Positions 5,027-64,000 of a stretch of DNA of 64,000 nt are shown piece by piece. The translations under genes and the position numbers were made by a program. Under the pieces are notes generated by a model. It ran no database searches. It was not told the DNA's origin and saw only the letters and a program-made list of their open reading frames with translations. Each line of letters starts with the position of its first letter. Positions within the stretch are counted from its first letter, which is position 1. Source of the DNA: an uncultured Gemmatimonadales bacterium (GTDB lineage Bacteria; Gemmatimonadota; Gemmatimonadetes; Longimicrobiales; RSA9); the NCBI GenBank assembly GCA_963798085.1, contig CAWCRS010000002.1, forward strand, positions 224,001 to 288,000. Reading direction: 5' to 3'.

Positions 5027-7855
5027 TCAATTCGTCGCGGGTTTCGTCGACGATGCACCCCCCAGCATGACGCCATTGAAAAGCAGTTTGAACGTGGCAT
5101 GCGGCTGGCCGCGGAAGGCGACCTCGGGACCGAGCAGCATGACGCGGCCCTTGCCCAGAGTGGCATCGACGATGGCGGTGCCGCCGTCGAGGTATTCCTG
5201 GCCCCAGGCCCAGCCGCTGTCCAGCACCTTGGGGCTGGCGAACCAGGCCACAGGCGAGGCGTGTTTGAGCGCGGCGTCAGGGCTCATGCGGAAAACAGGA
5301 CTGTTATCGAACACCACATTGACGGTCGAAGGCATGCCGTACGCCAGCGGGTCGGTGTTGTCCACGCTCACGCGCAGCAGTGAGCCGGGGATGTAGAACT
5401 TCTCGGGTGGCAGCGGCTGCTCGCGACCATTGTGGTCCAGTTCGGTGAGGTAGTCGCTGACGGGCAGGCCCAGCAGCTGGCCCATTCCGGTCGAGCTGCC
5501 AATGCTGACCACCGCGCCGCCGGCTTCGACGAACCGGCGCAGCTGCGGAATCGTACGATCTTCGCTGATGCGGCCCAGCCAGCCGCGGTACTCGGCCGGG
5601 ATGCTGGCGGGATCGGTGCTCGTGCCGTCGCCGCCGCTGCCCGCACGCATTTCGCCCGCGGCACTCTCGCCACGCGCGCGGCGGAACGCGCCATCCGTGA
5701 ATACGAGGACGTCGTACTTGTTCTGCAGATTGCCGGCATCGAGTGTCTGCGGATACACCAGCTCGCAGGGGAACTCGTACTGCTCGAAGAGCCAGCGCGC
5801 CCAGCCGGTGGGCATGAGGCCGCCATAGATGTCGACCAGCCCGATGCGCACCGGCTTGAGCTTGATCGCCGTCTGTATGGCGCGCGCCGCACCATGCACG
5901 TCCACACCCAGTTCTTTTGCGGCGCGCTCCAGTATGGGCCTGCCCGCCGTGCACGCAGGCGTCCAGATGGTGCCTGTTCCCAGGTCCACATGCTCGTCGG
6001 TTTCAGCGCCGGGCAGCCAGTATACATCGCAGCCCGCCTTGAGCAGCCGGTTCACGACAATGAACGAATTGTTAGTCTCATGGCTGATCAAGTAGCCGGC
6101 GGCATTGGCTGGACCGGTCACGGTGCCGGCTGGCGGATCGACCAGACCGGTCAGCTTCGTGAACGGTCCGTCGAACGGATCCAGCAGCCGGTCGTACTGC
6201 ACGCCCATCTGCATGGCCAGTGTCCAGCCCGTGATGTCATAGGGCGGGATGGGCGGACCGCCCGGATAACGGAAATCGTTGGGGTGATCCTGCGGCTCGA
6301 ACATGTCGAGCACGTGCGGGCGGTACGCCTGCGCCGTCTTCACCACGTAGGAACCTGCGGGATAGCTCTTGCCGCCCGCCTGGAAACCCGCGCTGGCGCG
6401 CTGTACCGTGATGCCGGTCTTGAGGAGCGCATTCACGAACTTCGTCGCGGTCGCGAAATCGGGCTGGTCCGCGGGAATGATGTAGCCGCGCGGATCGCGA
6501 TGCTGCGGATCGTGCAGCACGCTCTCGTAGAGCGATGCTGGCAGCGCGTTGCCGCCGCCGCGCAGCGCGGCATTCGCGGTGCGCCCCTGCGCCGCCGCCC
6601 GCAGCGCCTCGATGCGATCCGGTGTCACCGTCCAGGAATCGCGGCTGCCGCGCTCGATCGAGTTCATGCCCTTGCGGTACATGTCGTAGAGCAGCGTCTC
6701 GCGATTGCGTGATGCGTAGTCGAGCACCGCGCGGTTGATCTCGATCTCATAATCGATCGACTGCCGGTAGTGCCATTTCTGCGGCGGCACGGGATACGGC
6801 AGATCGCCTGTGGGCAGCTGCCGGTCCGCTACCAGCGGGATGTCGACGGGTGTGGGATTGCCGATAATCTCCGTGAGCAAGCCGATGGTGTTGTGGAAAT
6901 AGCCGATCGTGCGCAAGCCGCCGTTCCACCACGTCGAATAGTTCGAGTAGCTGCGCATGCCCGAACCCGGCATGCCCTCGGAAATCAGGCGGGCGTGCAT
7001 GGCGCTGGCCACCTGCTCGATCTGCACGGGAATGAGCGGATCGAAGTTGTAGTTGAAGGGATCGCGGAACGGTGGCATGAACACCACGCCGCCCGTGGCA
7101 TTGGGACCGGGCTGATGGTGGTTGTAGACGATCTGCGGGAACCACTCGAGGAACATGACGCGATTCATGTTCGTGGTTTCCGGCATGTTGGAGATGAAGA
7201 AGTCGCGGTTGTCGTCGTGGCCGATGTACTTGTTGTACAGGCGGGGCAGCGCATTCAGCGACCGCTTCGCCGGGTCCGACTCACGCATGTACCACTTCGC
7301 CACCATCTCCTGCCCGTCCGGATTCGCCTGCACGGCCAGCAGGATGTCATCATTCAGGAAACGCATCGTCTCGGGATCCGTGCGGCTGACCATCTGGTAG
7401 ACGGTCTCCATGATCTGCTGCGAGCCGACCGTCTCGCTGGCGTGCAGTCCGCCATCGATCCATACGACGGCCTTGCCTTCGCGCGCCAGCGCGTGCGCCT
7501 GGTCCTCGGTCAGACCTTCCGCGTGCGCGAGACGCGCGGAAATATCGCGATAGTGGTCGAGCTTCTTCAGATTCTCCGGCGAACTGATGATGGCCATGTA
7601 CTGGTGCCGGCCCTCTGCGGTCGGGCCCATGTCGACCAGCTTCATGCGGTCCGACTCCGCAGCCAGCTTCTTCCACCAGCCCTCCAGTTGCGTGTAGTTC
7701 GCCATCTGGTAGTCGTCACCCAGATTGAACCCGAGCGCCTGTTTCGGCGTGGTCACCTTGAGCGGCGCCTGCGCCCGCAGCGCGGACGTCTGCGCGGCCA
7801 GTGCCAGCAGCAGCGTGAGCAGCAGTGTCGATTGACGCGCGGCGCGTGCCTTCAT
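5027..7855 (-). CDS. Secreted M14 family zinc carboxypeptidase
   Basis: Signal peptide, GLHASE (HxxE), NPDG, HDDNRD, YNHHQ; C-terminal glutamine-amidotransferase-like domain. Confidence 0.9.
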   Translation of the reverse strand: MKARAARQSTLLLTLLLALAAQTSALRAQAPLKVTTPKQALGFNLGDDYQMANYTQLEGWWKKLAAESDRMKLVDMGPTAEGRHQYMAIISSPENLKKLDHYRDISARLAHAEGLTEDQAHALAREGKAVVWIDGGLHASETVGSQQIMETVYQMVSRTDPETMRFLNDDILLAVQANPDGQEMVAKWYMRESDPAKRSLNALPRLYNKYIGHDDNRDFFISNMPETTNMNRVMFLEWFPQIVYNHHQPGPNATGGVVFMPPFRDPFNYNFDPLIPVQIEQVASAMHARLISEGMPGSGMRSYSNYSTWWNGGLRTIGYFHNTIGLLTEIIGNPTPVDIPLVADRQLPTGDLPYPVPPQKWHYRQSIDYEIEINRAVLDYASRNRETLLYDMYRKGMNSIERGSRDSWTVTPDRIEALRAAAQGRTANAALRGGGNALPASLYESVLHDPQHRDPRGYIIPADQPDFATATKFVNALLKTGITVQRASAGFQAGGKSYPAGSYVVKTAQAYRPHVLDMFEPQDHPNDFRYPGGPPIPPYDITGWTLAMQMGVQYDRLLDPFDGPFTKLTGLVDPPAGTVTGPANAAGYLISHETNNSFIVVNRLLKAGCDVYWLPGAETDEHVDLGTGTIWTPACTAGRPILERAAKELGVDVHGAARAIQTAIKLKPVRIGLVDIYGGLMPTGWARWLFEQYEFPCELVYPQTLDAGNLQNKYDVLVFTDGAFRRARGESAAGEMRAGSGGDGTSTDPASIPAEYRGWLGRISEDRTIPQLRRFVEAGGAVVSIGSSTGMGQLLGLPVSDYLTELDHNGREQPLPPEKFYIPGSLLRVSVDNTDPLAYGMPSTVNVVFDNSPVFRMSPDAALKHASPVAWFASPKVLDSGWAWGQEYLDGGTAIVDATLGKGRVMLLGPEVAFRGQPHATFKLLFNGVMLGGASSTKPATN

Positions 7856-45843: not shown

Positions 45844-46257
45844 ATGTTGCTTACCATCGACGACATCACCGTGGGCGATACCTGCACCGAGCAGGTCGAG
45901 TTCACGCCCGAGAAGACGGCGCAGTTTCTCCGCCTCACGGGCGATGCGGCAGGTATCCATACGGTCGAGTCGTTCTCCCGCGGCATGGGCTACGACAACC
46001 TGGTCGTGTACGGTTTTCTGCTGAGCCTGCAGTTTTCGCGAATGCTCGGCATGCAGCTGCCTGGCGAGAATACGGTGATCGGTTCCATTCAGCTGGACTT
46101 CCACGAGCCGGTGTACGTGGGAGACACGGTCACGTACACGGCGACAGTGCGACGCATCATCAAGCCTCTCGGTCTTGTGGCGCTGGATCTGGACGTGCGC
46201 AAGAGCAATGGGACGCTGTGCGTCCAGGGGAAGACGACGTGCGCCTTCAAGGCCTGA
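45844..46257 (+). CDS. MaoC family (hot-dog) dehydratase
   Basis: F.RLTGD...IH, VYGFL, LPG, F.EPVYVGD. Confidence 0.85.
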   Translation: MLLTIDDITVGDTCTEQVEFTPEKTAQFLRLTGDAAGIHTVESFSRGMGYDNLVVYGFLLSLQFSRMLGMQLPGENTVIGSIQLDFHEPVYVGDTVTYTATVRRIIKPLGLVALDLDVRKSNGTLCVQGKTTCAFKA

Positions 46258-46351
46258 AGCGGCCGGAACCGTCTCACTCGCCGACAGCCATCGAACGCGT
46301 GCGCAGCCGCCCCGGCATCACTCACTCGAACGCCCACGTCTGAGGCGACCC

Positions 46352-47246
46352 ATGGCATTGGAAGCACTCGAACGGTTCCAGAACGAGCTGTTCAGCAACG
46401 CGCAGATTTTCCGCAAGACGTTCCAGGACGTGCAGTCCGCGTTCGGACCGCCATGGGAGGCCGAGTTCGACGAGCACCTGCGCAATCTCTTCGGCGACAA
46501 TGTCGAGGCGTACCGCAGCGCCATTCGCGGCTACAGCCGCTTCGCCATCGATGCCATGCGCCTGCAGCGCATCTTCAACAAGAAGAAGAAGTACGAGGAC
46601 CAGAGCTACGAAGAGGCGTACGAGCACGTCTACATGAACCCGGATTACATGATGAATCTGTACCTTCCGGGTATTTTCGTTTCCCACTTCCTGTGGCGGC
46701 ACCACTACCGTCAGTTCGGCTACTACAAGCAGCAGTTCCTGCCGCGGCTGGACTCGGTGACCGACCGGCGCTTCTACGAGGTGGGCACGGGCACGGGCTT
46801 CTACACGGTCCAGGTCTACCGCCACGAACCGCGCTTTCACGGGTACGGCATTCGACATCAGTCCGCATTCGCGGCAGTTCACCCTGAACAACATCCGCGG
46901 CTGGGGCTTCGAGTCGCGCTTCACGTCGATGGAAACGAACATCATCAATGCCGGCCTCGAGCCGCTGCCGGTCGTGCAGTGCATCGAGGTGCTGGAGCAT
47001 CTTTCGGATCCGCAGACGTTCCTGGACCACCTGCGCAAGATGCTGTTACCGGGCGGGCACGGCTTCATCACGGCGGCGCTGACGGCGCCCAATGCGGACC
47101 ACATCGACCTGTACTGGACGCCGCAGGACGTGATCGACCAGCTGGAGTCCGCGGGCTTCAAGGTCGAGGATCACATTGAGGAGCTGGCGTACGAAGGCGC
47201 GCCCGGCGAGATCGTGCCCAAGGTGGCGGCCTTCATCGTGTCGTAG
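46352..47246 (+). CDS. Class I SAM-dependent methyltransferase, frameshift near 46850
   Basis: FYEVGTGTG, GYG | DIS, CIEVLEHLSDP, LLPGG. Confidence 0.82.
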
Positions 47247-47265
47247 CCGGACGAGACGCAGAAGC

Positions 47266-49135
47266 ATGGATGAATCGAAGAACGTGAACCGCAGTGGTGT
47301 GGGCCCGGCTGCACTGCCGCCGTTCCCGCAGCTGCAGCGCTGGAATGCGACGCCGCTGCCGGATCTGCCCGCACTGAAGATCGCGGTGCTGCGCAATATC
47401 GTGCTGGACCCGGTGGTGCCCCACCTGCGCTGGCTGGCCTGGCGCGAGGGCTTCAACGCTTCGGTGCGCTTCGGCGAGTACGACAACATTGTGCAGGAAG
47501 CCGTGGGCGGTGCGCCCGGCCTGCTGGACGAGAACACGGACTGCGTGCTCGTCTTCATGCGCCTCGACACACTCTCGCCGCGGCTGACACTCGATTACGC
47601 CAGCCTGTCGAGCGAAGAGATCGCCGGCGAAATCGAGCGTATCCGCGCGACCGTTACGGACGTCATCGCGGGGATCCGCCGCCAGACCAGCGCGCTCGTG
47701 CTGTGGCACAGCTTCGAGCAGCCGGTGCAGCCGGCACTGGGCATTCTGGACGGCCAGCAGCCGGGTGAGGGGCAGACCGGTGTGGTGCGCAGGCTGAACG
47801 ACGCGCTTGCGGATGCATTGCGCGCGACGCGCAACGCGTACAGCGTCGACATGAATCGCCTGCTGGCTCGCGTGGGCGCGAACGAGTTCTACGATGCGCG
47901 CTACTGGCACGCGGCGCGGGCGCCGTACACGCTGGCGGCCGTGCGCGAGATCGCGTTCGAGGCCACGAAGTACCTGCGAGCGCTGAAGGGTCGCGCGCGC
48001 AAATGCCTGGTACTCGACTGCGACGGCGTGCTCTGGGGCGGTACCATCGGCGAGGATGGCCTGGCCGGGATCAAGCTGGGCACCACGTTCCCGGGTTCCG
48101 CCTACCGCGAGTTCCAGCAGGAGATCCTGAACCTGCACAGGCGCGGCGTGCTGCTCGCGCTGTGCAGCAAGAACAACGCGGACGATGTCTGGGACGTGTT
48201 CGACCGGCACCCCGACATGGTGCTGCGGCGCGAGCATCTCGGCGGCGACGCGCGTGAACTGGACGGACAAGGCGACCAATCTGCGCGAGCTCGCGCAGGA
48301 GCTGAACATTGGTGTAGACAGCCTGGTCATGGTGGATGACAGCGACTTCGAGGTCGACCTGATCCGCGAGTTCCTGCCCGAGGTCACGGTGATCGGCATG
48401 CCCGCGGGCAAGCCCACGGAGTATCGCGGCATCCTGGCGGGCTCCGGGCTGTTCGACACGCTCACGCTCTCGGCGGAGGACCGCGCGCGCGGCGCCGCCT
48501 ACCAGGCGGAAGTGGCCCGCAAGCGGCTGCAGAGCGAAACGGCCGACATGGGCTCGTTCCTGCAATCGCTGGCGATGTCGCTGGAGATCCGGCTGGCCGA
48601 CGATTTCGCGCAGCCGCGCATCGCGCAGCTGACGCAGAAGACGAACCAGTTCAACCTGACGACTCGCCGTTATTCGGAAGAGGACATTCAGCGGTTCCGG
48701 GAAAGCGACGACGCGGATGTCATTTACCTGCGGTACCGCGACCGCTTCGGCGATGCCGGCATCGTGGGCGTGTGCATCCTGCGCTACGAGCACGACGCGG
48801 CGGTGGTGGACAGCCTCATGCTCTCCTGCCGCATCCTGGGTCGCAGCGTAGAGCAGACGTTCCTGGCGCACTGCCTGGCGCGCGCCGGCCTGCGCGGCGC
48901 GGTCCGCGCGCTGGGCGAGTACCGGCCCACCGCGAAGAATGCACAGGTGAAGGAATTCTATCCGGCCAATGGCTTCTCTTCTGCGGCCGGGCTTGCGGAA
49001 GGCGTCTATCGCATCGAGCTGGCCGCGCTGCCTTTGCCGGCCGCCACGCTGTTCCGCATCGAAACCGATCTCATGCAGGAAAGCAGTCTACCGGAGTCAC
49101 GAGTACTCGGGATCCAAGGAGAAGCCACGGCATGA
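47266..49135 (+). CDS. FkbH-family HAD-IIIC phosphatase/glyceryltransferase, frameshift near 48240
   Basis: KCLVLDCDGVLWGG.IGEDG, LCSKNN | VNW.DK, VDD, QL.QKTNQFNLTTRRY, DRFGD.G, LSCRILGR.VE. Confidence 0.9.
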
Positions 49136-54092: not shown

Positions 54093-57000
54093 ATGACCAG
54101 GACATCGCTACCGGTTGGAGTCTGGGTCGCACTGTGCGCACTGGCGCCCACCGCCGTACGGGCGCAGGCGCCGGCGTCACCGTTCGATTCGCTGCATTTC
54201 CGATCGATCGGCCCGGCGGGCACGGGCGGGCGCATCCACGACCTCCAGATCGATCCGACGAATCCGGCGATCCTGTACGTGGGCGCGGCCACGGGCGGGA
54301 TCTGGAAGTCCACGAACAAGGGCGTCACGTGGACGGACATCTTCGGCGGGCAGCCTGACAACACGTTCGGTTCGCTGGCCATCTTCGAGGGCGACCCGCG
54401 CATCGTGTGGGCGGGCACGGGTGAGAACAACAACCGCCAGAGTTCGTCCTGGGGCGGCGGCGTCTATCGCACGACGGACGGCGGCGAAACATGGAGTTAT
54501 ATGGGCCTGCACGACACGCGCTCGATCGGCCGCGTCGTGCTGCACCCGACGAATCCCGGCATCGCATACGTCGCCGCCGTGGGCAATCTCTGGCGAGGCA
54601 ATGAGGAACGGGGCGTGTTCAAGTACGACGGATGCGGGCCGCACGTGGACGAAAGTGCTGTACGTCGACACGCTCACGGGCGCCACCGACCTGGTCATGG
54701 ACCCGCGCGATCCGAACGTGCTCTATGCCGCGACCTATCAGCGGCTGCGCCGGGCGTACGGCTTCAACGGCGGCGGGCCGGGCAGCGCGATCTACAAGAC
54801 CGATGGACGGCGGGAATACATGGGGCAGGCTGGAGAACGGAATTCCCGCCGGTGACAAGGGGCGGATCGGTCTGGCGATTGCACGCTCGCATCCCGATGT
54901 GCTCGATCGCGACGATCGAGCACGCGACTGCCGGCTGGCACGTACCGCACCGAGGATGCGGGCGCGACGTGGAAGCGCATGAGCGCAGTGAACCCGCGGC
55001 CGATGTACTACAGCAAGCCGACGATCGACCCGAACAACGATCGGCGCGTGTGGCTCCCGGGCACGTACATCCTGAAGAGCGAGGATGGCGGGGCGACGTT
55101 CGAGGAAGAGCCGACGTCGCCGACGTACGATGTGGGCCTGAAGACGGACCACCATGTGATCCGCGTGGACCCGGCGAACTCGAATCACATCTACGTGGTA
55201 GGCGATGGCGGGCTGCACGAGAGCTTCGACATGGGCAAAACGTACACGCGCGTGAACAACATTCCAGTCAGTCAGATCTATCGCGTGGCCGCGGACGATC
55301 GCGATCCGTACTGGCTCTATGTGGGCCTGCAGGACAACCACTCGTTCATGGGCCCGAGCGCGACCCGCCACTGGCTGGGCATCCTGAATCAGGACTGGAT
55401 GGAGATCGGCTTCAGCGATGGCACCGGCAAGGCCGTGGATGTGCGCGACTGGCGCAAGGTCTACTCGTCCTCGAGCAACGGCAATCTCTCGCTGGTCGAT
55501 CCGCTGACGGGTGACGCGATGGGCATCAACCCGCGTCCGCCCGCGGGCGAGCCACCCTACCGCTATGACTGGGATGCGCCCGTCATGGCATCGCGACACA
55601 CGCCCGGCACCGTCTACCTGGGCGGTAACCGCCTGTTCATCTCGAAGGATTACGGTTCGACCTGGACCCGCACGGAAGACCTGACGCGCCAGATCGATCG
55701 CGACACCATCCCGATGATGGGGGTGCTCGACCGCGACATCAAACTGTCGCGCAATGATGGCGCCGACATCAGCGAGATCTCGAATTTCGCCGAATCGCCG
55801 ATCGATCCGAAGATCCTGTGGGTGGGCACCGATGATGGCAACGTCCAGCTGACGACCGACGGCGGCAAGACATGGACGGAGCTGAGCCACCACATCACAG
55901 GCGTGAGAGACGGCACGTTCGTGGGCGACATCGTCGCCTCCGCCGCCGGACGCGGCACCGCCTACGTTTCCTTCGATGCGCACCGTGATGGCGATTTCCG
56001 GCCGTACCTGTTCCGCACGACGGATTTCGGTCAGAGCTGGACACCGGTGGTCACGGGACTGCCGACGGATGATGCGTCGATCCGCGGGCTGGCCGAATTC
56101 CCGGGTCATCCTGACGTGCTGTTTGCGGGCACGGAGCGGGCGCTGTTCGTGAGCCGGGACAGTGGCGCGCACTGGACGCGGCTGCGCGCCAACCTGCCGA
56201 CGACGCGGTACGATGACATTCTGGTCCATCCGCGCACGAAGGATCTCATTCTGGCCACGCACGGCAGAGGCATCTGGATTCTGGATGACGCCTCGCCCAT
56301 CGCCGAGCTGACGCCCGCCGTGGCCGCGCAGCGCGCGCATCTCTTCAGCGTGCCCCTCGCCACGCTGATGCTGTACTGGGAAGACGTCTCCAACATGAGC
56401 CATTACTTCTTCACGGCGGAGAATCCGGCCGAGGGCGCGACGTTCACATATCACCTGGGGCAGCCGGCGGCGAAGGTGCGACTGCTCGTAACGCGCGGTG
56501 GCAGGACCGTGCGTGAGCTGACCGGGCCGGTTTCTGCTTCCGTGATCCATCGCGTCAACTGGGACCTGCGCTATCCGCTGCCACCCGGTGTGGGCGGCGG
56601 TGGTGGCGACGAAGGTGGCGGCGATCAGCAGCGACCGGGCGCCATTGCGCTGCCGATCCCATCGCACGAGATCGGTCCGCGCGGCCCGCACATCGCACCG
56701 GGCAAATTCACAGTCACGCTCGAGGTGGATGGCCAGGCCGTCGCAACGCAGCCATTCGAGGTGCGAGCGGATCCGGCCTCATCGATCACGGCCGCGCAGC
56801 ACAAGGCGCGCGATGCCTTCGTGGTGGAAGCTTCGGAACTGCTGCAGACGATCGATACGCTGGCAAATGCGCTGCACTCGAGGAGCGCCGCCGCCAGTGG
56901 TGAGGAAGCCGCTCGCCTGCGCGCGCTGGAGGTGCGGCTCGTGGGTGGTGGTGGCGGCCGCGGGGGTCGGGGTGGCGGCGGCGGCCGAGGCGGCGCGGTG

Positions 57001-57162
57001 CAGCCGCTTCGCCAGCGACTGGCGGCGCTGCTCAATGCGTTCACCGGCTCCGGTGCGCGCACCGGCACCCTCGCCGCGCCTACCAGCACCTTGAAGTCCG
57101 CGCTGGCGGAAGCGAAATCGGATCTGCACGCGGTCGAGAGCGAGGTCAACGCGCGCAGATAG
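54093..57162 (+). CDS. Secreted VPS10/BNR-repeat glycosyl hydrolase-like protein, several frameshifts at 54620-54940
   Basis: FRSIGP, GGIWKS, repeated S/TxDxGxTW Asp-boxes, GLQDN, ATHGRGIWILDD. Confidence 0.88.
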
Positions 57163-57212: not shown

Positions 57213-59687
57213 ATGGCGAATTTCACCGTGAAGCCCGCGCTGCGTCAGCTGGTCGAGAACCGCCTGAAGGCCGAAGGCGTTTCGCAGAAGACCTGGGCCG
57301 GAGCCGTCCTCGCGGCTTTCGAGAGTCGGGAGGCGCTGGAGGACTACCTTGGCGGCGGCGAGGCCACGCAGCCAATCTCGACAGAGGCGCCGTCTGCACG
57401 CCCCGCCGAGGCATACCTTGCCTCGCTTACCGTCGAAGGCTTTCGCGGCATGGGTCCAGCGCGGACGCTGGACCTGAACGCCGCGCCCGGCCTCACCCTG
57501 ATCGTCGGTCGCAACGGTTCAGGCAAGTCCAGTTTTGCGGAAGGGCTGGAGGTGCTGTTCACGGGCGACAGCCAGCGCTGGGCGAATCGTCCCAGGGTCT
57601 GGAAAGATGGCTGGCGTAACCTCCACCATCCGCACCCGACTTCGATAACAGCCGAGTTGCTGCTCGCCGGGACAGGGCCCGTGGAGGTGAGGACGGAGTG
57701 GGATGCGGAAGCCCCGCTGGATTCGTACCGCACCGTGGTTCAACCGAAAGGCAAGCCGAAAACCTCGCTGGCCGCGCTGGGCTGGAACGAAGCACTCGTC
57801 TCCTACCGCCCGTTCCTCTCCTACAATGAGCTGGGGTCGATGCTGGACGAGGGCCCGTCAAAGCTCTACGACGCTCTGTCTGTGGTGCTGGGGCTGGAAG
57901 AGATCGTGTCGGCTCAGAACGTGTTAGCGAAGGCGAGGACGGAGCGCCAGAAGGCATTGAAGTTGGCAGAGACGGAGCGGGACGGGCTGTGCGATCAGCT
58001 GGAGCAACTGCTGGATCAGGGCTCGGACGACAGGGCGTCCGCAAGTCTCGACGCGCTGGACCATGACGACTGGGGCCTCGCCACATTGGAGAACCTGGTC
58101 TCCGGTGCTGCCACGGCGCAGGATAACACTGTGTTGGGTGTCCTGTTGCAGGCAGCGGGGATCGAGGTTCCCGACGCGCAGACCGCGGCGCAACACGTCG
58201 CGGCGCTGCGTGAGGCCGTTGCTCAACTGGAGGCCGTCGCGGCCACGGATGCGGAGCGATCGCGAAAGCTGGCGCGGCTGCTCGAGGCGGCGCTCGAGTT
58301 TCAGCAGAATCACGCGGTGTCGGATTGTCCGGTCTGCGGCACGGCGGATGCCATCGGGCCCGACTGGAGAGCCTCCACGCAGGCGGAAGTCGCGCGGCTT
58401 CGGGAGCTGGCCGCGGCAAGCGACGCGGTGCACCGCCGGGCGGATGCGGCACGCGATCAGGCACTGGCGCTGCTGCGGACCGCTCCCTCGAAACTGCTCG
58501 ACCCGTTGCAGATGATGGGAATCGAGGGTGTGCAGGCGGCGCGTGAATCGTGGGCGAATTGGACCCGGGGCGCGCAACTTCGTGACCCCATGGCGCTGGC
58601 CGATCATATCGAATCGCAGCACGCGGCCTTCCTGCGCGCGACCGACAACCTGAAGCAGAATGCCGCGAGGGAACTGCAGCAGCGACAGGATCGCTGGAAG
58701 CCGGTCGCGGCGGCCATCGCCGGCTGGATTCCAGACGCCAGGTCAGCCCTCGAGGGCGACGAAGAACAGGAATTCATCAGTGATGCGGAGAAATGGCTGA
58801 AGACCGCGGCGGCGGAGATTCGTAACGAGCGGTTTGCCCCGATCGCGGAGCAGGCGATGGAGCTCTGGGGGATGCTGCGCCTCAACAGCAACGTGGATCT
58901 GGGGCGGATCCAGCTGACAGGAGCAGGGTCGCAACGCAAGGTCAGTCTGGATGTGACCGTGGATGGCGTGGCCGGAGCGGCATTGGGCGTCATGAGCCAG
59001 GGAGAGCTTCACTCTCTGGCGCTGAGTTTGTTCCTGCCCCGCGCGACGCTCGCGGAAAGCCCGTTCCGCTTCGTGGTGATCGACGACCCTGTGCAGTCGA
59101 TGGATCCCGCGCGGGTGGACGGCCTGGCGCGCGCACTGAACGAGATCGCGCGAACGCGGCAGGTCATTGTGTTCACGCATGACACGCGGCTGCCCGATGC
59201 GGTCCGCCGGCTCGGCATCAAGGCCACGATACTCGAGATCACGCGCCGGCCCGAGTCGGTCGTCGAGGTGCGTACTGCGCTCGATCCGGTGCGCGCGCAC
59301 ATCGAAGATGCTCTCGCCCTGGCGTTCACGGCTGAGCTTCCCGGAGATGTGCTGCAGCGGCTGGTGCCAGGTTTTTGCCGTTCCGCTCTCGAAGCCGCCT
59401 TCACGCAGGTCGTGCGCCGTCGACGCCTTTCCGCGGGAAATGATCACGCGGCCGTGGAGGATGAGCTCCGGAACGCGCCGAAGCTCACATCCCTCGCCGC
59501 ACTCGCCCTGTTCGATGACCGGGAGCGCGGTGGCGACGTCATGAACCGTCTGAACAAGTTCGGCGCCTGGGCAGGCGATGTCTTCAAGAACTGCAAGGAC
59601 GGAGCACACGTCGGCGCCGCGGTGGATTTCAGGATTCTGATCGACAACACGCAGGACCTCTGCGACCGTGTCGTCGCGCTCAAGTAG
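57213..59687 (+). CDS. Rad50/RloC-like coiled-coil ABC ATPase with zinc hook and C-terminal helical domain
   Basis: GFRG, Walker A GRNGSGKSS, CPVC, signature MSQGE, Walker B/D-loop VVIDDPVQSMD, H-loop FTHD. Confidence 0.88.
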   Translation: MANFTVKPALRQLVENRLKAEGVSQKTWAGAVLAAFESREALEDYLGGGEATQPISTEAPSARPAEAYLASLTVEGFRGMGPARTLDLNAAPGLTLIVGRNGSGKSSFAEGLEVLFTGDSQRWANRPRVWKDGWRNLHHPHPTSITAELLLAGTGPVEVRTEWDAEAPLDSYRTVVQPKGKPKTSLAALGWNEALVSYRPFLSYNELGSMLDEGPSKLYDALSVVLGLEEIVSAQNVLAKARTERQKALKLAETERDGLCDQLEQLLDQGSDDRASASLDALDHDDWGLATLENLVSGAATAQDNTVLGVLLQAAGIEVPDAQTAAQHVAALREAVAQLEAVAATDAERSRKLARLLEAALEFQQNHAVSDCPVCGTADAIGPDWRASTQAEVARLRELAAASDAVHRRADAARDQALALLRTAPSKLLDPLQMMGIEGVQAARESWANWTRGAQLRDPMALADHIESQHAAFLRATDNLKQNAARELQQRQDRWKPVAAAIAGWIPDARSALEGDEEQEFISDAEKWLKTAAAEIRNERFAPIAEQAMELWGMLRLNSNVDLGRIQLTGAGSQRKVSLDVTVDGVAGAALGVMSQGELHSLALSLFLPRATLAESPFRFVVIDDPVQSMDPARVDGLARALNEIARTRQVIVFTHDTRLPDAVRRLGIKATILEITRRPESVVEVRTALDPVRAHIEDALALAFTAELPGDVLQRLVPGFCRSALEAAFTQVVRRRRLSAGNDHAAVEDELRNAPKLTSLAALALFDDRERGGDVMNRLNKFGAWAGDVFKNCKDGAHVGAAVDFRILIDNTQDLCDRVVALK

Positions 59688-60046
59688 CGATCCGCGCGCG
59701 CTGCTTGCCGCCGCGCGCAAGCTGATGGCCAGGCCTGACCCGAAAACAGCAGGGTTATGGCCGCGCGGGAGCCGCGCTGCTCGCCCGGCAGGCACTGGAG
59801 TCCGCGCTCGACGATCTGTGGCGCGAGCGAGCGCCCGGCCTCGAGCAATGCTCGGCGCGCGCGCAACTGCTCTGTTTGCCGGATTATCTGCACCATGGCG
59901 ATCTGGCCGAGCGAGTGGCGTACGCGTGGGCCGGGCTGAGCCGGGCCTGTCACCATCAGGCGTATGAGTTGCCGCCGACGGCGGGCGAGCTCGAGGGGTG
60001 GATGAGCGTGGTTGGAGAGCTGGTGGAGGCCGGAATGACACACTGA
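59668..60046 (+). CDS. Small HEPN-like helical protein, frameshift near 59768
   Basis: Joined frames read ...GLWPR | GAALLARQALESALDDLW...SARAQLLCL...AWAGLSRACHHQAYELPPTAGELEGW...*; overlaps the ATPase stop codon. Confidence 0.7.
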
Positions 60047-60226
60047 CGGTCGGGCAGCAGCTTACCTGCGCCCAGCCCTTCAGGTCAACGCTTGCAGATA
60101 CCGGACAGATATTCATGTCCGAAGTACCGTGTCACCAGGTTTGCGCTATCGAGCGCTTCCCCACGTAGCGATCGCCCTACGGCTTCGATCAGGAAAATTG
60201 CGGGCACTCTGCTTACGTGTGGTTGA

Positions 60227-63200
60227 CTATCCGTTCGACGACCGTCCCCGCCCACCGCGACGCGCCGCTCGGGCAACACGCTGTTGGGACTCCGCATCGC
60301 TCCGGTCCTCAATGTGAGAGCGAAGGAACGCACCGGTATACGATGCCCTGCTCGCTGCTACCTGCTCGGGTGTGCCCGCCACCACGATCTCGCCGCCGCC
60401 GTGCCCGCCGTCGGGACCGAGGTCGATGACCCAGTCGGCCGTCTTGATCACGTCCATGTGGTGCTCGATCAGCAGCACGGTGTGACCGGCATCGACGAGG
60501 CGGTTCAGCGACTCGAGCAGCTTCTCGACATCGGCCAGGTGAAGACCCGTCGTCGGCTCATCGAGGATGTAGACCGTGTGCTTCGAGCGCTGCAGCTTGC
60601 TCAGCTCCGTCGCGATCTTCATGCGCTGCGCCTCGCCGCCTGACAGCGTGGTAGCGGACTGACCGAGTGTCAGGTAGCCGAGGCCGAGGTCGTTCAGCAC
60701 CTCGATCTTGCGGCCCACCGCGCTCTCGTTCGCGAAGAATGTGACGCCTTCCTCGATCGACATGTTCAGCACATCGTCAATGGTTCTGCCGCGCAGAGTC
60801 ACCTCGAGTGTGTCGCTGTTGAAGCGCGCGCCCTTGCAGGCCGCACACATGACTTCGACATCGGGCATGAAGTAGAGCTGCGTCCTGATCACGCCTTCGC
60901 CCTGGCACTCCTCGCAGCGGCCGCCCTTGACGTTGAAGCTGAAGCGGCCCGGCTTGTAGCCGCGCTCGACGGAGAGCGGCGCGCGTGTGAACAGGGCGCG
61001 GATCGTGTCATAGAAGCCGACATACGTAGCGGGGTTCGAGCGGCTGTTGCGGCCGATGGCCGTCTGGTCGATGCTCACCACGCGGTGAATGTGCTCGAGC
61101 CCGTCAATGCCGTCGTGCGCGCCGGGCAGTGTGCGCGTGTCCACCAGCCGCTTCCAGAGGGCCTTGTAGAGGACTTCGCTGATCAGTGTGCTCTTGCCCG
61201 ATCCGGACGCGCCCGTAATGGCGACCATCATGCCCAGCGGGAACGTGACGTCAATGTGCTTCAGGTTGTTTTCGCTGGCGCCGCGCACGATCAGCTTCCT
61301 GCCATTGCCCTTGCGTCGCTTCTTCGGTGTGGGAATCCAGCGCTTGCCGGAGAAGAACTGGCCCGTGGGTGATGCCTCGCAGGCGAGGATGTCATCCATC
61401 GTGCCCTGTACGACGACATGGCCGCCGTGCACGCCCGCGCCCGGGCCCATCTCGACGATGTGGTCGGCGGCGCGGATGGTGTCCTCATCGTGCTCGACGA
61501 CGATCACCGTGTTGCCGATGTCGCGCAGACTCTTCAGCGTGGCGATCATCTTGACGTTGTCCTTCGGGTGCAGCCCGATGCTCGGCTCATCGAGCACGTA
61601 GAGCATGCCCATGAGGCCCGAGCCGATCTGCGTGGACAGACGGATGCGCTGCGACTCGCCGCCGGACAGCGTGCTCGAGCGGCGATTGAAGTTGAGGTAG
61701 TCGAGGCCAATGCCGAGCAGCAGCTCGAGACGGTTGCGGATCTCGTGCAGCACCTGCCGCCCGGCGTCGGCGCTGCGCCCTGTCGGCTCGATGGTGCCGA
61801 GGAACGCGTGCAGCTCATCGAAGTTGAGCTGGCCGAACTCGAACAGTGTGCGACCCGCGATGGTGAAGAGCTGGCGCGTGGCGCGCAGGCGAGCGCCATT
61901 GCAGTCCGGGCAGGTGTGCTCGAGCATCACTTTCTCCAGCCATGCCTCCATGCCCGAACTGGCTTCGCCACGCTGCCGGTAGCGGCGGTAGTGCCGCTCA
62001 ATGCGGCGGGCAATGCCGCCGAAGCCCACTTCCTTTCCCTGCAGGTCGTCGTGACTGACTTTCGCCTCGGGCGGCAGCACCACCGGTATCTTCCTCGCCT
62101 CAATGCCATAGAGGATGGCATTGCAATGCGTGTCGGCCAGCTTCTCCCATGGAGTGTCGAGCGAGAAGCCCACCGCCTGTGACAGGCTGTACATCAGGCG
62201 GCCGTCCCACGTGTCGGGATTGTAGCGGAACGCCTCGCGCACGAAGCAGCCGCCACGGATGCTGCGGCGAGGATCGGGCACGAGCAGGTCGGGGTGCGTG
62301 AGTTTGTGCACGCCCAGTCCGCCGCACGTGCGGCACGCGCTCTCGGGCAGGTTGAACACGAAGTATTCGGGCCTGATCTCGCCATAGACGAAGTGGTGCG
62401 TGAGGCTGCAGTGTGCGCGGTAGAAGCGCTGGGTCTCTGCCTTGCCGGCGCCGCGCATGACCTGCACCTGCATGAGGCCATCGCCCACAAGCAGCGCGGC
62501 GGCAATGGCGGCCTTGATCGCCTTCTCGTGCTTGCGGCCGACGATCAGCCGATCGACTACCGCATCCATGTCCTTGACCTGCGACTCGTCGAGCTCAATG
62601 TCCTGAGCGATATCCACGGTGCGGCCATCCACGATGAGCCGGCGACAGCCTTTCTTGCGCACTTCCGTGAGCACGAATTCCAGGTCTTCGCCGTAGACCT
62701 TGAAGACGGGCGCGCGCAGTTCGATCTCCCCGCCTTCGGGCAGGGACAGGATGGCCTCGAGGATCTGGGCTGCACTGCGGCTGGGTGTGTGCTCGCCCGT
62801 ACGCGGGCAGTGCGGCTCGCCCACGGTGGCAAACAGCAGGTTGAGATAGCCCGCAATGTCCGTGAGCGTGCCCACGGTCGAGCGCGGATTGCTGGACATC
62901 GTCTTCTGCTCGATGGAGATGACGGGCGAGAGGCCGAAGACGAAGTCGACATCGGGCCTGGTGACCTGCGCCACGAAGCGCTTGGCGTAACTGGACAGCG
63001 ATTCCAGGTAGCGACGCTGGCCTTCGGCGTAGATGGTGTCGAATGCCAGGCTCGACTTGCCCGAGCCCGACAGGCCAGTGACCACCACCATCTGGTCGCG
63101 GGGAATCTCGACGGTGATGTTCTGCAGGTTGTGCACGCGCGCGCCCTGCACGGCGATGGTGGTGCGCGGCGCCGCCGGTGCCGCGTCCGGTTGCGCGCGG

Positions 63201-63274
63201 GGCGCCGATTTCGCCGGACTGCGCTTGCGCGGCGCCGCTTTCGCCGCCGACTGTTTCCTGCGCCCGCCCTTCAC
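60227..63274 (-). CDS. uvrA: Excinuclease ABC subunit A-like protein (probably a class II paralog)
   Basis: [26 protein letters not shown] twice, [22 protein letters not shown] overlap with the upstream gene. Confidence 0.9.
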
Positions 63275-64000
63275 AGGCTGTCTCCGTTCTGCCCACCGGG
63301 ATGGAAGAAGGCCAGCTCCTGCATGCTGAGGTTGCTCCGTTTCGTGAGTTGCACCGACGCGGCCGCCTTGCCCAGCAGTCCCTGATCGGCCAGGTACTCG
63401 CACGCGGTGGTCACGCCACTGACGCCGTACTGTTTCGTGAACCAGTCCTCGATCTCCGTGCACGAGCGGATCTCGCCGACCTCGCGCAGGTGATCGAGCA
63501 CGGGCGCGAACAGGCGGTTTGCGCGCGTCGACATGTACTCGTCCACGGTGTCCAGCGCGGCCTGCACGTTCTGCTTCGTCTTCTTCTGGTTGAGCAGTTC
63601 CGAATAGATCACGCGGAACAGCTCGGGATTCAGCTTCATCGCCTGTGGTATTACTTCGCGGTCGGCGATCTGGCGCGCCTCAATGACTTCGATGCGGGCC
63701 AGTGAGCCGGCTGCCATGAGGATCCAGAGCGCGGTGTAGTCGAGGTCGCCGCGTGTCAGCAGGAACTTGTGCGCCTTGTAGATGGCGGGCAGTGCGAAGG
63801 TCGCGGCGCGCAGCAGCTGGAGATGCGTGTCGCGCTCGCCCAGCTCGCTCAGGCCCGCGCACAGCTGCGCAATCGTATCGTCGTGCGTGTAGAGCAGCCG
63901 CCCGCGTGTCAGGAACGTGTGCACGAAGGAGTTGTGCAGCGAGCCCTCGACGATCCGGCGGAACTCCGCACGCGGGATCAGCAGTGCGTGCACGTTCACG
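63271..64000 (-). CDS. Hypothetical protein, possibly nucleotidyltransferase-associated (5' part outside window)
   Basis: Open frame with good codon usage; GRLLYTHD followed by a helical bundle; coupled to uvrA. Confidence 0.65.

Follow-up and report, generated by a model that had tools for sequence, protein, structure and literature searches.

The window analyzed here is a stretch of 64,000 nucleotides from an uncultured Gemmatimonadales bacterium (GenBank assembly GCA_963798085.1, contig CAWCRS010000002.1, positions 224,001 to 288,000), and all positions below refer to it unless a locus is named. Two overlapping genes in the window encode a split ATP-binding cassette (ABC) ATPase with a HEPN-like tail and a small partner protein (Table 1). 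A first-pass annotation, made from the letters of the window, had proposed them as a candidate two-gene defence system. Our comparison of homologues suggests that the pair is likely an anti-phage system without an existing name.

Table 1. Positions of the two genes, their motifs and the flanking repeat in the window (ORF, open reading frame)
Feature	Position	Strand	Basis
Split ABC ATPase, Rad50/RloC type, 824 amino acids, zinc-hook coiled coil and HEPN-like C-terminal tail	57213..59687	+	ORF, alignment, model
N-terminal three-helix element, residues 8-46	57234..57350	+	model and family consensus
Walker A GRNGSGKSS, residues 99-107	57507..57533	+	alignment
Zinc-hook motif CPVC, flanked by coiled-coil helices	58326..58337	+	C372/C375 invariant in 58/58; placement from model
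C-terminal head half: signature MSQGE, Walker B/D-loop DDPVQSMD, switch His656	58992..59180	+	alignment
HEPN-like helical tail, residues 689-824, C722-R723-x3-E727 and K792-x6-H799	59277..59684	+	model, alignment, profiles
Partner gene of 125 codons with a predicted HEPN fold; codons of R at 59786, of E at 59798 and of the invariant H at 59951	59668..60046	+	ORF reading, alignment, homologue model
GGG run with the frame change of the partner, one extra base relative to homologues	59767..59769	+	alignment; probably assembly error
Left copy of 19-bp direct repeat, last codons of upstream BNR-repeat gene	57143..57161	+	repeat search
Right copy of 19-bp direct repeat, 36 bp past partner stop	60082..60100	+	repeat search

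The ATPase ORF and its central CPVC zinc hook were found as the first-pass annotation had described them. Motif conservation was examined in 58 aligned homologues out of 120 listed. Walker A was invariant in all 58 except at S103, which was kept in at least 90%, and C372 and C375 of the hook, MSQGE (residues 594-598), DDPVQSMD (residues 624-631) and H656 were each invariant. The annotation had credited the protein with all catalytic motifs, but two of them are atypical. The invariant Tyr204 aligned with the Q-loop Gln of the SbcC protein of the same genome, and Walker B read DD, matching RloC-type proteins, whereas SbcC has DE. The motif set is therefore not fully canonical.

The structure model of the ATPase, with a predicted local distance difference test score (pLDDT) of 87.4, contained an N-terminal three-helix element, a split ABC head and the CPVC motif amid long helices. 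From about residue 689 it formed an all-helical tail of about 136 amino acids (689-824), in agreement with the extra C-terminal domain of roughly 140 residues described earlier. The closest structural match was Rad50 (Z 27.5, root-mean-square deviation (rmsd) 5.9 over 345 residues), and Lamassu LmuB structures ranked below it with Z values of 17-19. The three-helix element, absent from the earlier description, was common across the ATPase family; its best Pfam match reached just E 0.12, and an Atlas search gave no usable match. The host genome carries a separate sbcD-sbcC pair on another contig, where its sole sbcD match lies, indicating that the ATPase gene of the window is not an orphaned SbcC.

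The partner gene starts at a GTG codon (59668) overlapping the ATPase stop and ends with TGA (60046). As the annotation had proposed, a frameshift hides this gene of 125 codons. The homologues were intact, and the window had one additional base at the GGG run relative to 5/5 aligned partners. Public read contigs do not reach this run, and a one-base gap at 59881, near the end of a depth-4 contig, was treated as unreliable. At least three further genes between 46 and 57 kb were frame-split, labelled by eye from the ORF translations as methyltransferase-like (46175-47246), FkbH-like (47176-49135) and BNR-repeat (54093-57162), suggesting consensus indel errors in the assembly. The frame change of the partner is probably an assembly error rather than the sign of a dead gene.

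The fold of the partner was examined with an intact homologue, L001, which is 72% identical to it over 85 amino acids. The L001 model (pLDDT 92.5) matched the HEPN protein 2hsb best among 48,161 chains (Z 15.5, rmsd 2.0 over 114 residues), and the titles of the next ten structural matches were mostly HEPN or HEPN toxin. Because chance matches between helical bundles can score up to a Z of about 13, the repeated HEPN titles count as much as the Z of 15.5. Foldseek gave the same ranking, with a template modelling (TM) score of 0.72 and an E-value of just 0.04. For the partner, the HEPN-like fold suspected from the letters alone is thus backed by the model of this homologue.

We then surveyed the best 80 of 579 GTDB stretches that matched the ATPase. 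The partner lay directly downstream of the ATPase in 74 loci, or in 74 of the 76 in which downstream sequence exists, since four loci end before the partner position. A 4-base overlap of ATPase stop and partner start was counted by hand in 50 of the 74. Two loci departed from this arrangement: in L007 the ATPase match stops at residue 782, within the tail, and the genome has no partner match, and in L051 the partner lies upstream on the opposite strand (about 7570-7830, minus strand) with both motifs altered. An even sample of 201 Streptomyces genomes contained 43 strong tail matches (E <1e-20), all of which adjoined a partner match when tails and partners were paired by hand; three further matches to the tail were weak (E about 1e-4) and lacked a partner, and the 43 do not include them. 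Partner matches without a tail match occurred in G417 and G376 (partial) and in G430 (intact), and unbroken partner matches adjoined broken ATPases in G309, G407 and G308:C26.

The partner was present in 40 of the 201 Streptomyces genomes, several of which had two or three copies, in 1/250 other genomes of the phylum sample, and in none of the 72 further genomes from the host family, many of them incomplete. Acidobacteriota and Actinomycetota made up most of the named hosts of the pair, and some were Chloroflexota or Gemmatimonadota. With the profile of the ATPase tail, at least 1,018 clusters (50% identity) were found. ATPase matches were seen on three plasmid records and none in the phage collection. 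The pair loci had no conserved third gene, the biggest neighbour cluster obtained with a simple gene caller occurring at 7/80 loci. The ATPase and the partner are a tightly conserved, patchily spread two-gene unit, and the pairing noticed in the window extends across homologues.

Three longer proteins also contained the partner domain. P0122 and P0123, in which it is joined to shortened ATPases, look like internal deletions, and P0121 looks like a read-through into NERD-UvrD; as likely products of deletion, read-through or faulty gene calling, these were left out as evidence for fusion. A 1,247-amino-acid ORF at L091, considered as a further fusion, is better read as an over-long start call.

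The catalytic triad of RloC and PrrC is described as R-x3-E-x36-52-H, with every residue required (PMC2610378). The first-pass annotation had looked for R-x4-H in both domains; the canonical form is indeed missing from the partner, but the relevant motif is the RloC/PrrC triad, which both domains carry. The partner alignment comprised 67 of 74 sequences, after removal of three with frame problems and of four near duplicates. The partner triad, R36-x3-E40-x50-H91, has a spacing inside the RloC range; its E and H, together with W83, were invariant in 67/67, and the H was present in 98/100 of a wider set. The tail triad, R723-x3-E727-x71-H799, was conserved at R in 264, at E in 260 and at H in 261 of 265 proteins, so the label "degenerate" given to the tail does not apply to most members. 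A K or R stood at position -7 from the tail His in 170/265, as in the window, and the tail keeps an RloC-like [KR]-x2-N-x2-[AS]H pattern where the RloC-type set has R-x2-N-x2-SH. The profiles of tail and partner aligned across 113 columns (E 0.001, probability 21.6), in line with the parallel pattern noticed earlier between the two domains. These results suggest that tail and partner are weakly homologous and probably paralogues.

To compare the gene context, two genes on each side of the pair at 20 of the 43 Streptomyces loci were set against four genes at a control site elsewhere in each genome. Restriction-type genes occurred at 16/20 pair loci (24/79 genes) and at 0/20 control loci (0/80 genes), so that the enrichment of defence genes near homologues that the annotation had suggested looking for was found. 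The category, set with the results in view, comprised GmrSD, McrB/McrC, HsdM/HsdR, N6 methylase, Eco57I, type ISP and REase_MTES_1575, and McrB was called from AAA_5 matches that adjoined McrC or came with DUF4357. The 150 nearest of 472 neighbour representatives around the GTDB loci were scanned, and at least 17 of them were PIN, HepT, MNT, BrnTA, HNH, GmrSD or methylase genes, a count without a matched control. None of the scanned neighbours was sbcD, again as anticipated, and the sbcD of the host genome has its own sbcC. A conserved MNT gene was absent from the pair loci, and a single nucleotidyltransferase match was seen among the 150 representatives (L038). In L101 and L104, hsdR lies immediately upstream of the pair. 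A defence role of some kind is likely for the pair.

Some homologues showed recurrent surroundings. At L052 (10946-13234) the pair is immediately upstream of pglZ, and at L132 (3260-5296) brxL is near the pair; the two are apparently the same locus, which was counted once, and the pair there lies inside or borders a BREX locus. In one Streptomyces branch, a UvrD-like helicase of 1,120-1,180 amino acids follows on the same strand (L093:2536-5922, L096:2588-5956, L103:2598-5966, L126:1852-5277, L127:1268-4660 and L136:10928-14479), and it stays where the ATPase has been lost (L126, L127). In another branch, McrB/McrC-like genes lie downstream (L087, L089, L092, L094, L095, L097 and L098); L087 and L089 have a gene of 545-556 amino acids between these and the pair, with a weak PADLOC HEC-07 match.

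The proteins were searched against PADLOC 2023, NCBIfam June 2026 and Pfam. The partner fragments of the window matched 0 families in the three libraries. Among the 67 intact partners, 0/67 matched any PADLOC model at E 0.1, NCBIfam gave nothing better than E 0.023, and Pfam gave scattered weak matches, with HEPN in 1/67 at E 0.079. Weak scattered matches were also obtained for 64 ATPase tails against PADLOC, which yielded no model for the tail; the top PADLOC score for the ATPase was LmuB (E 1.2e-20). Sequence searches of the PDB returned nothing relevant, and no entry of the viral fold library matched at E 0.001. In the Atlas, the tail resembled unnamed clusters (0.90-0.92), and one cluster at 0.88 had AAA_13 on 13% of its members, which is a lead only. 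AAA_13 (PF13166) is taken here, in line with JGI protein names, as the RloC model. The ATPase fell below its Pfam cut-off, with 25.7 vs 36 bits, and matched over residues 592-660 only. The single AAA_13 match in the Streptomyces sample (L134, G285:C413) comes from a short contig, and across the region searched it is identical to a protein that carries a Pseudomonas name, so that it is probably contamination of that assembly. The pair was far commoner than AAA_13 in these genomes (40 vs 1 of 201).

A full-text literature search, with supplements outside its range and an earlier bioinformatic mention therefore possible, found no published description of the pair, and no library model names the partner, consistent with the earlier suggestion that the system was undescribed. 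Passages of PMC12839542 and 10.1101/2024.01.29.577857 contain no description of the pair, and the six Streptomyces defence systems of 10.1101/2025.01.08.631966, three of which are described in passages of that paper, do not match it.

RloC, as portrayed in PMC2610378, shares with the pair a split ABC ATPase, a central CxxC hook in a coiled coil, and a helical C-terminal domain in which R-x3-E is followed by a late His. Its size range of 658-897 amino acids includes the 824 residues of the window ATPase, and the DDP-type Walker B and links to restriction loci are common to both (PMC2610378). Unlike RloC, the ATPase has a tail triad spacing of x71, while the RloC-range spacing of x50 sits in the separate partner. 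It resembles an RloC-type protein at the ATPase motifs only, has an obligate second HEPN gene and carries an extra N-terminal helical element. The pair would work like RloC while differing from it in triad spacing and in its score below the AAA_13 cut-off. PrrC and the ABC-HEPN fusions APECO1_4465 and ERFG_01251 likewise have an ABC ATPase that gates a C-terminal HEPN domain and are associated with type I restriction-modification (R-M) systems (PMC3710099); PrrC differs in having no hook insert, and the passages of PMC3710099 considered here describe no dedicated stand-alone HEPN partner. Lamassu (LmuABC) has an SbcC-derived zinc-hook sensor in a small operon according to PMC12663957, whereas the pair has no LmuA-type effector or LmuC, and its effector-like domain is HEPN, partly fused to the sensor. 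SbcCD and Rad50-Mre11 share the head fold and hook, but the ATPase differs from SbcCD in its Q-loop Tyr, DD Walker B, HEPN-like tail and lack of an adjoining sbcD. HEPN1 and HEPN2 of Cas13 are a precedent, by analogy only, for one sensor-switched site made of two non-identical HEPN domains (10.64898/2025.12.03.690598); these lie in one chain with the canonical motif, whereas those of the pair would lie in two proteins.

We tentatively favour the view that the pair is an RloC-type anti-phage unit in which a DNA-sensing ATPase gates an RNase site shared by the HEPN-like tail and the HEPN partner, a view that falls a little short of probable. The ATPase would dimerise through its head and hook and read DNA ends, as suggested by Rad50, SbcCD and Lamassu. 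On sensing foreign or broken DNA, the zinc-hook ATPase would switch on the RNase site. Tail and partner would form an asymmetric HEPN dimer, in which the tail contributes the basic residue seven positions ahead of its His, and the more invariant His comes from the partner. Activation would cleave tRNA, the target suggested by RloC, or other RNA and halt translation, as a second line behind restriction systems. HEPN RNases are reported to act as dimers that bring two motifs together, an arrangement that is asymmetric in Cas13 (10.64898/2025.12.03.690598). A hetero-dimeric site under the control of the ATPase would suit two triad-bearing domains that are nearly always co-inherited and complementary in their conservation. 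In complex prediction, tail and partner scored 0.38 vs 0.05 for the best control, the runs shared at least 77% of contacts, and the partner pLDDT was at least 79. The mark applied to such scores was reached by 116/157 solved complexes and 2/215 mismatches; at scores of 0.60 or less, it was reached by just 18/157 and by both mismatches. The prediction gives weak support to tail-partner binding and may reflect likeness to solved HEPN dimers. In a wider and rather doubtful picture, the pair would be a widespread unnamed immune system with a Rad50-like sensor and a HEPN RNase split over two genes, with an asymmetric Cas13-like site. Streptomyces would have it as their usual system of the RloC type, and in the window it would have arrived as a compact, integrase-free cassette inserted at a gene 3' end.

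Several observations weigh against the shared, ATPase-gated site. The partner has no basic residue at -7 and no conserved Arg 5-7 residues before its His, and thus no canonical Rx4-6H, and the x71 spacing of the tail triad lies outside the RloC range of x36-52. In hhalign, the match between the tail and RloC-type tail profiles was not significant (E 0.27); it covered 24 columns and placed R-x3-E in register, the RloC set being of low diversity (39 sequences, effective number (Neff) 1.7). Six loci of Vicinamibacteria/Acidobacteriota (L013, L024, L029, L037, L053 and L074) have lost the tail His and kept the partner His, indicating that two catalytic His are not needed universally. The Streptomyces context loci were hand-picked, several are kin and the controls were placed by hand; with a category list fixed afterwards, that comparison carries no p-value. 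In the window itself, the flanking genes, a BNR-repeat gene upstream and a uvrA-like gene, are no defence genes by Pfam, and the GC content of the pair resembles that of its surroundings.

These observations also bear on other explanations. The tail might by itself be an RloC-like RNase homodimer, with the partner as its antitoxin, a HEPN paralogue that inhibits by covering the dimer face until it is set free by the sensor. The absence of a tail without a partner among the 43 Streptomyces cases, the intact lone partner of G430 and the three broken ATPases beside unbroken partner matches would be expected of such an antitoxin, and it is the tail that has the [KR]-x2-N-x2-[AS]H pattern while the partner lacks the basic residue. 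However, invariance of the partner His, Trp and Glu exceeds what a plug needs, the six loci without the tail His retained that of the partner, and L007 has an ATPase cut short in the tail in a genome without a partner match; we consider this explanation unlikely. A reversed assignment, in which the partner is the toxin, held inactive on the ATPase tail and freed to homodimerise when the sensor fires, as with Lamassu and PARIS effectors, would suit the clade without the tail His, the partner triad spacing that fits RloC exactly and the partner His as the best conserved residue. In Lamassu, a sequestered effector is reported to be released (PMC12663957). A cell ought not to tolerate a free toxin, yet the intact partner persists alone in G430 and next to broken ATPases elsewhere, and a mere clamp would not need the triad that more than 98% of the 265 tails keep; we consider this assignment quite improbable.

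It is likewise unlikely that neither domain is an RNase and that both are non-catalytic HEPN-type binding or scaffold modules, the ATPase acting on DNA or aiding neighbouring restriction, helicase or repair enzymes. HEPN domains without the Rx4-6H motif, which the partner lacks in canonical form, can be non-catalytic (PMC3710099), Rad50 is the fold that the ATPase matches best, and McrBC, type I R-M or UvrD-like helicase genes often adjoin the pair. Against this explanation, no third gene is conserved beside the pair, both domains keep R, E and H, and active HEPN proteins with altered motifs are known (PMC3710099). The genome also has its own sbcCD, and the patchy spread of the pair is unlike that of housekeeping repair.

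RloC and PrrC were the sole characterised ABC-gated HEPN tRNases found in the literature, and both carry the nuclease in one chain. The pair, a family of at least 1,018 clusters that is present in a fifth of the sampled Streptomyces and whose HEPN parts are missed by PADLOC, Pfam and NCBIfam, would add a common defence system. It would allow a clean test of HEPN dimer gating, with the second HEPN protein as hetero-partner, inhibitor or released effector, and the intact copies in culturable Streptomyces make this test direct. The six loci without the tail His are a natural test of which HEPN domain is catalytic.

Regarding the locus itself, no sbcD, scpAB, jet or restriction genes were recognised by eye in the ORF translations of 45-64 kb or of the next 15 kb, with Pfam applied to the two flanking genes, in agreement with the first-pass annotation, which had found no such genes nearby. 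No promoter-like site or meaningful terminator was found at the pair, and no tRNA in the window. The two copies of the 19-bp repeat flank the pair, are 17/19 identical and have no further copy in the 6.2-Mb genome; 0.03 second copies were expected in the shuffled window. The left copy forms the last codons of the upstream gene, as would be expected had integration occurred at the end of a gene. Since it was chosen afterwards from 14 repeat families, the repeat is a hint, and it is possibly the integration footprint of a 2.9-kb integrase-free cassette. The closest orthologues of the two flanking genes sit on separate short contigs, and their gene ends have diverged.

The gene at 60227-63463 on the minus strand is a second, divergent uvrA-like gene, with close orthologues (75-78%) in just 4/72 genomes of the family, and the host genome carries another uvrA-type gene on contig C7. 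About 7 kb past the window (L138:4289-5743, minus strand) lies an ORF that presumably encodes a TIR-like N-terminus, a PASTA-like repeat and a papain-type protease.

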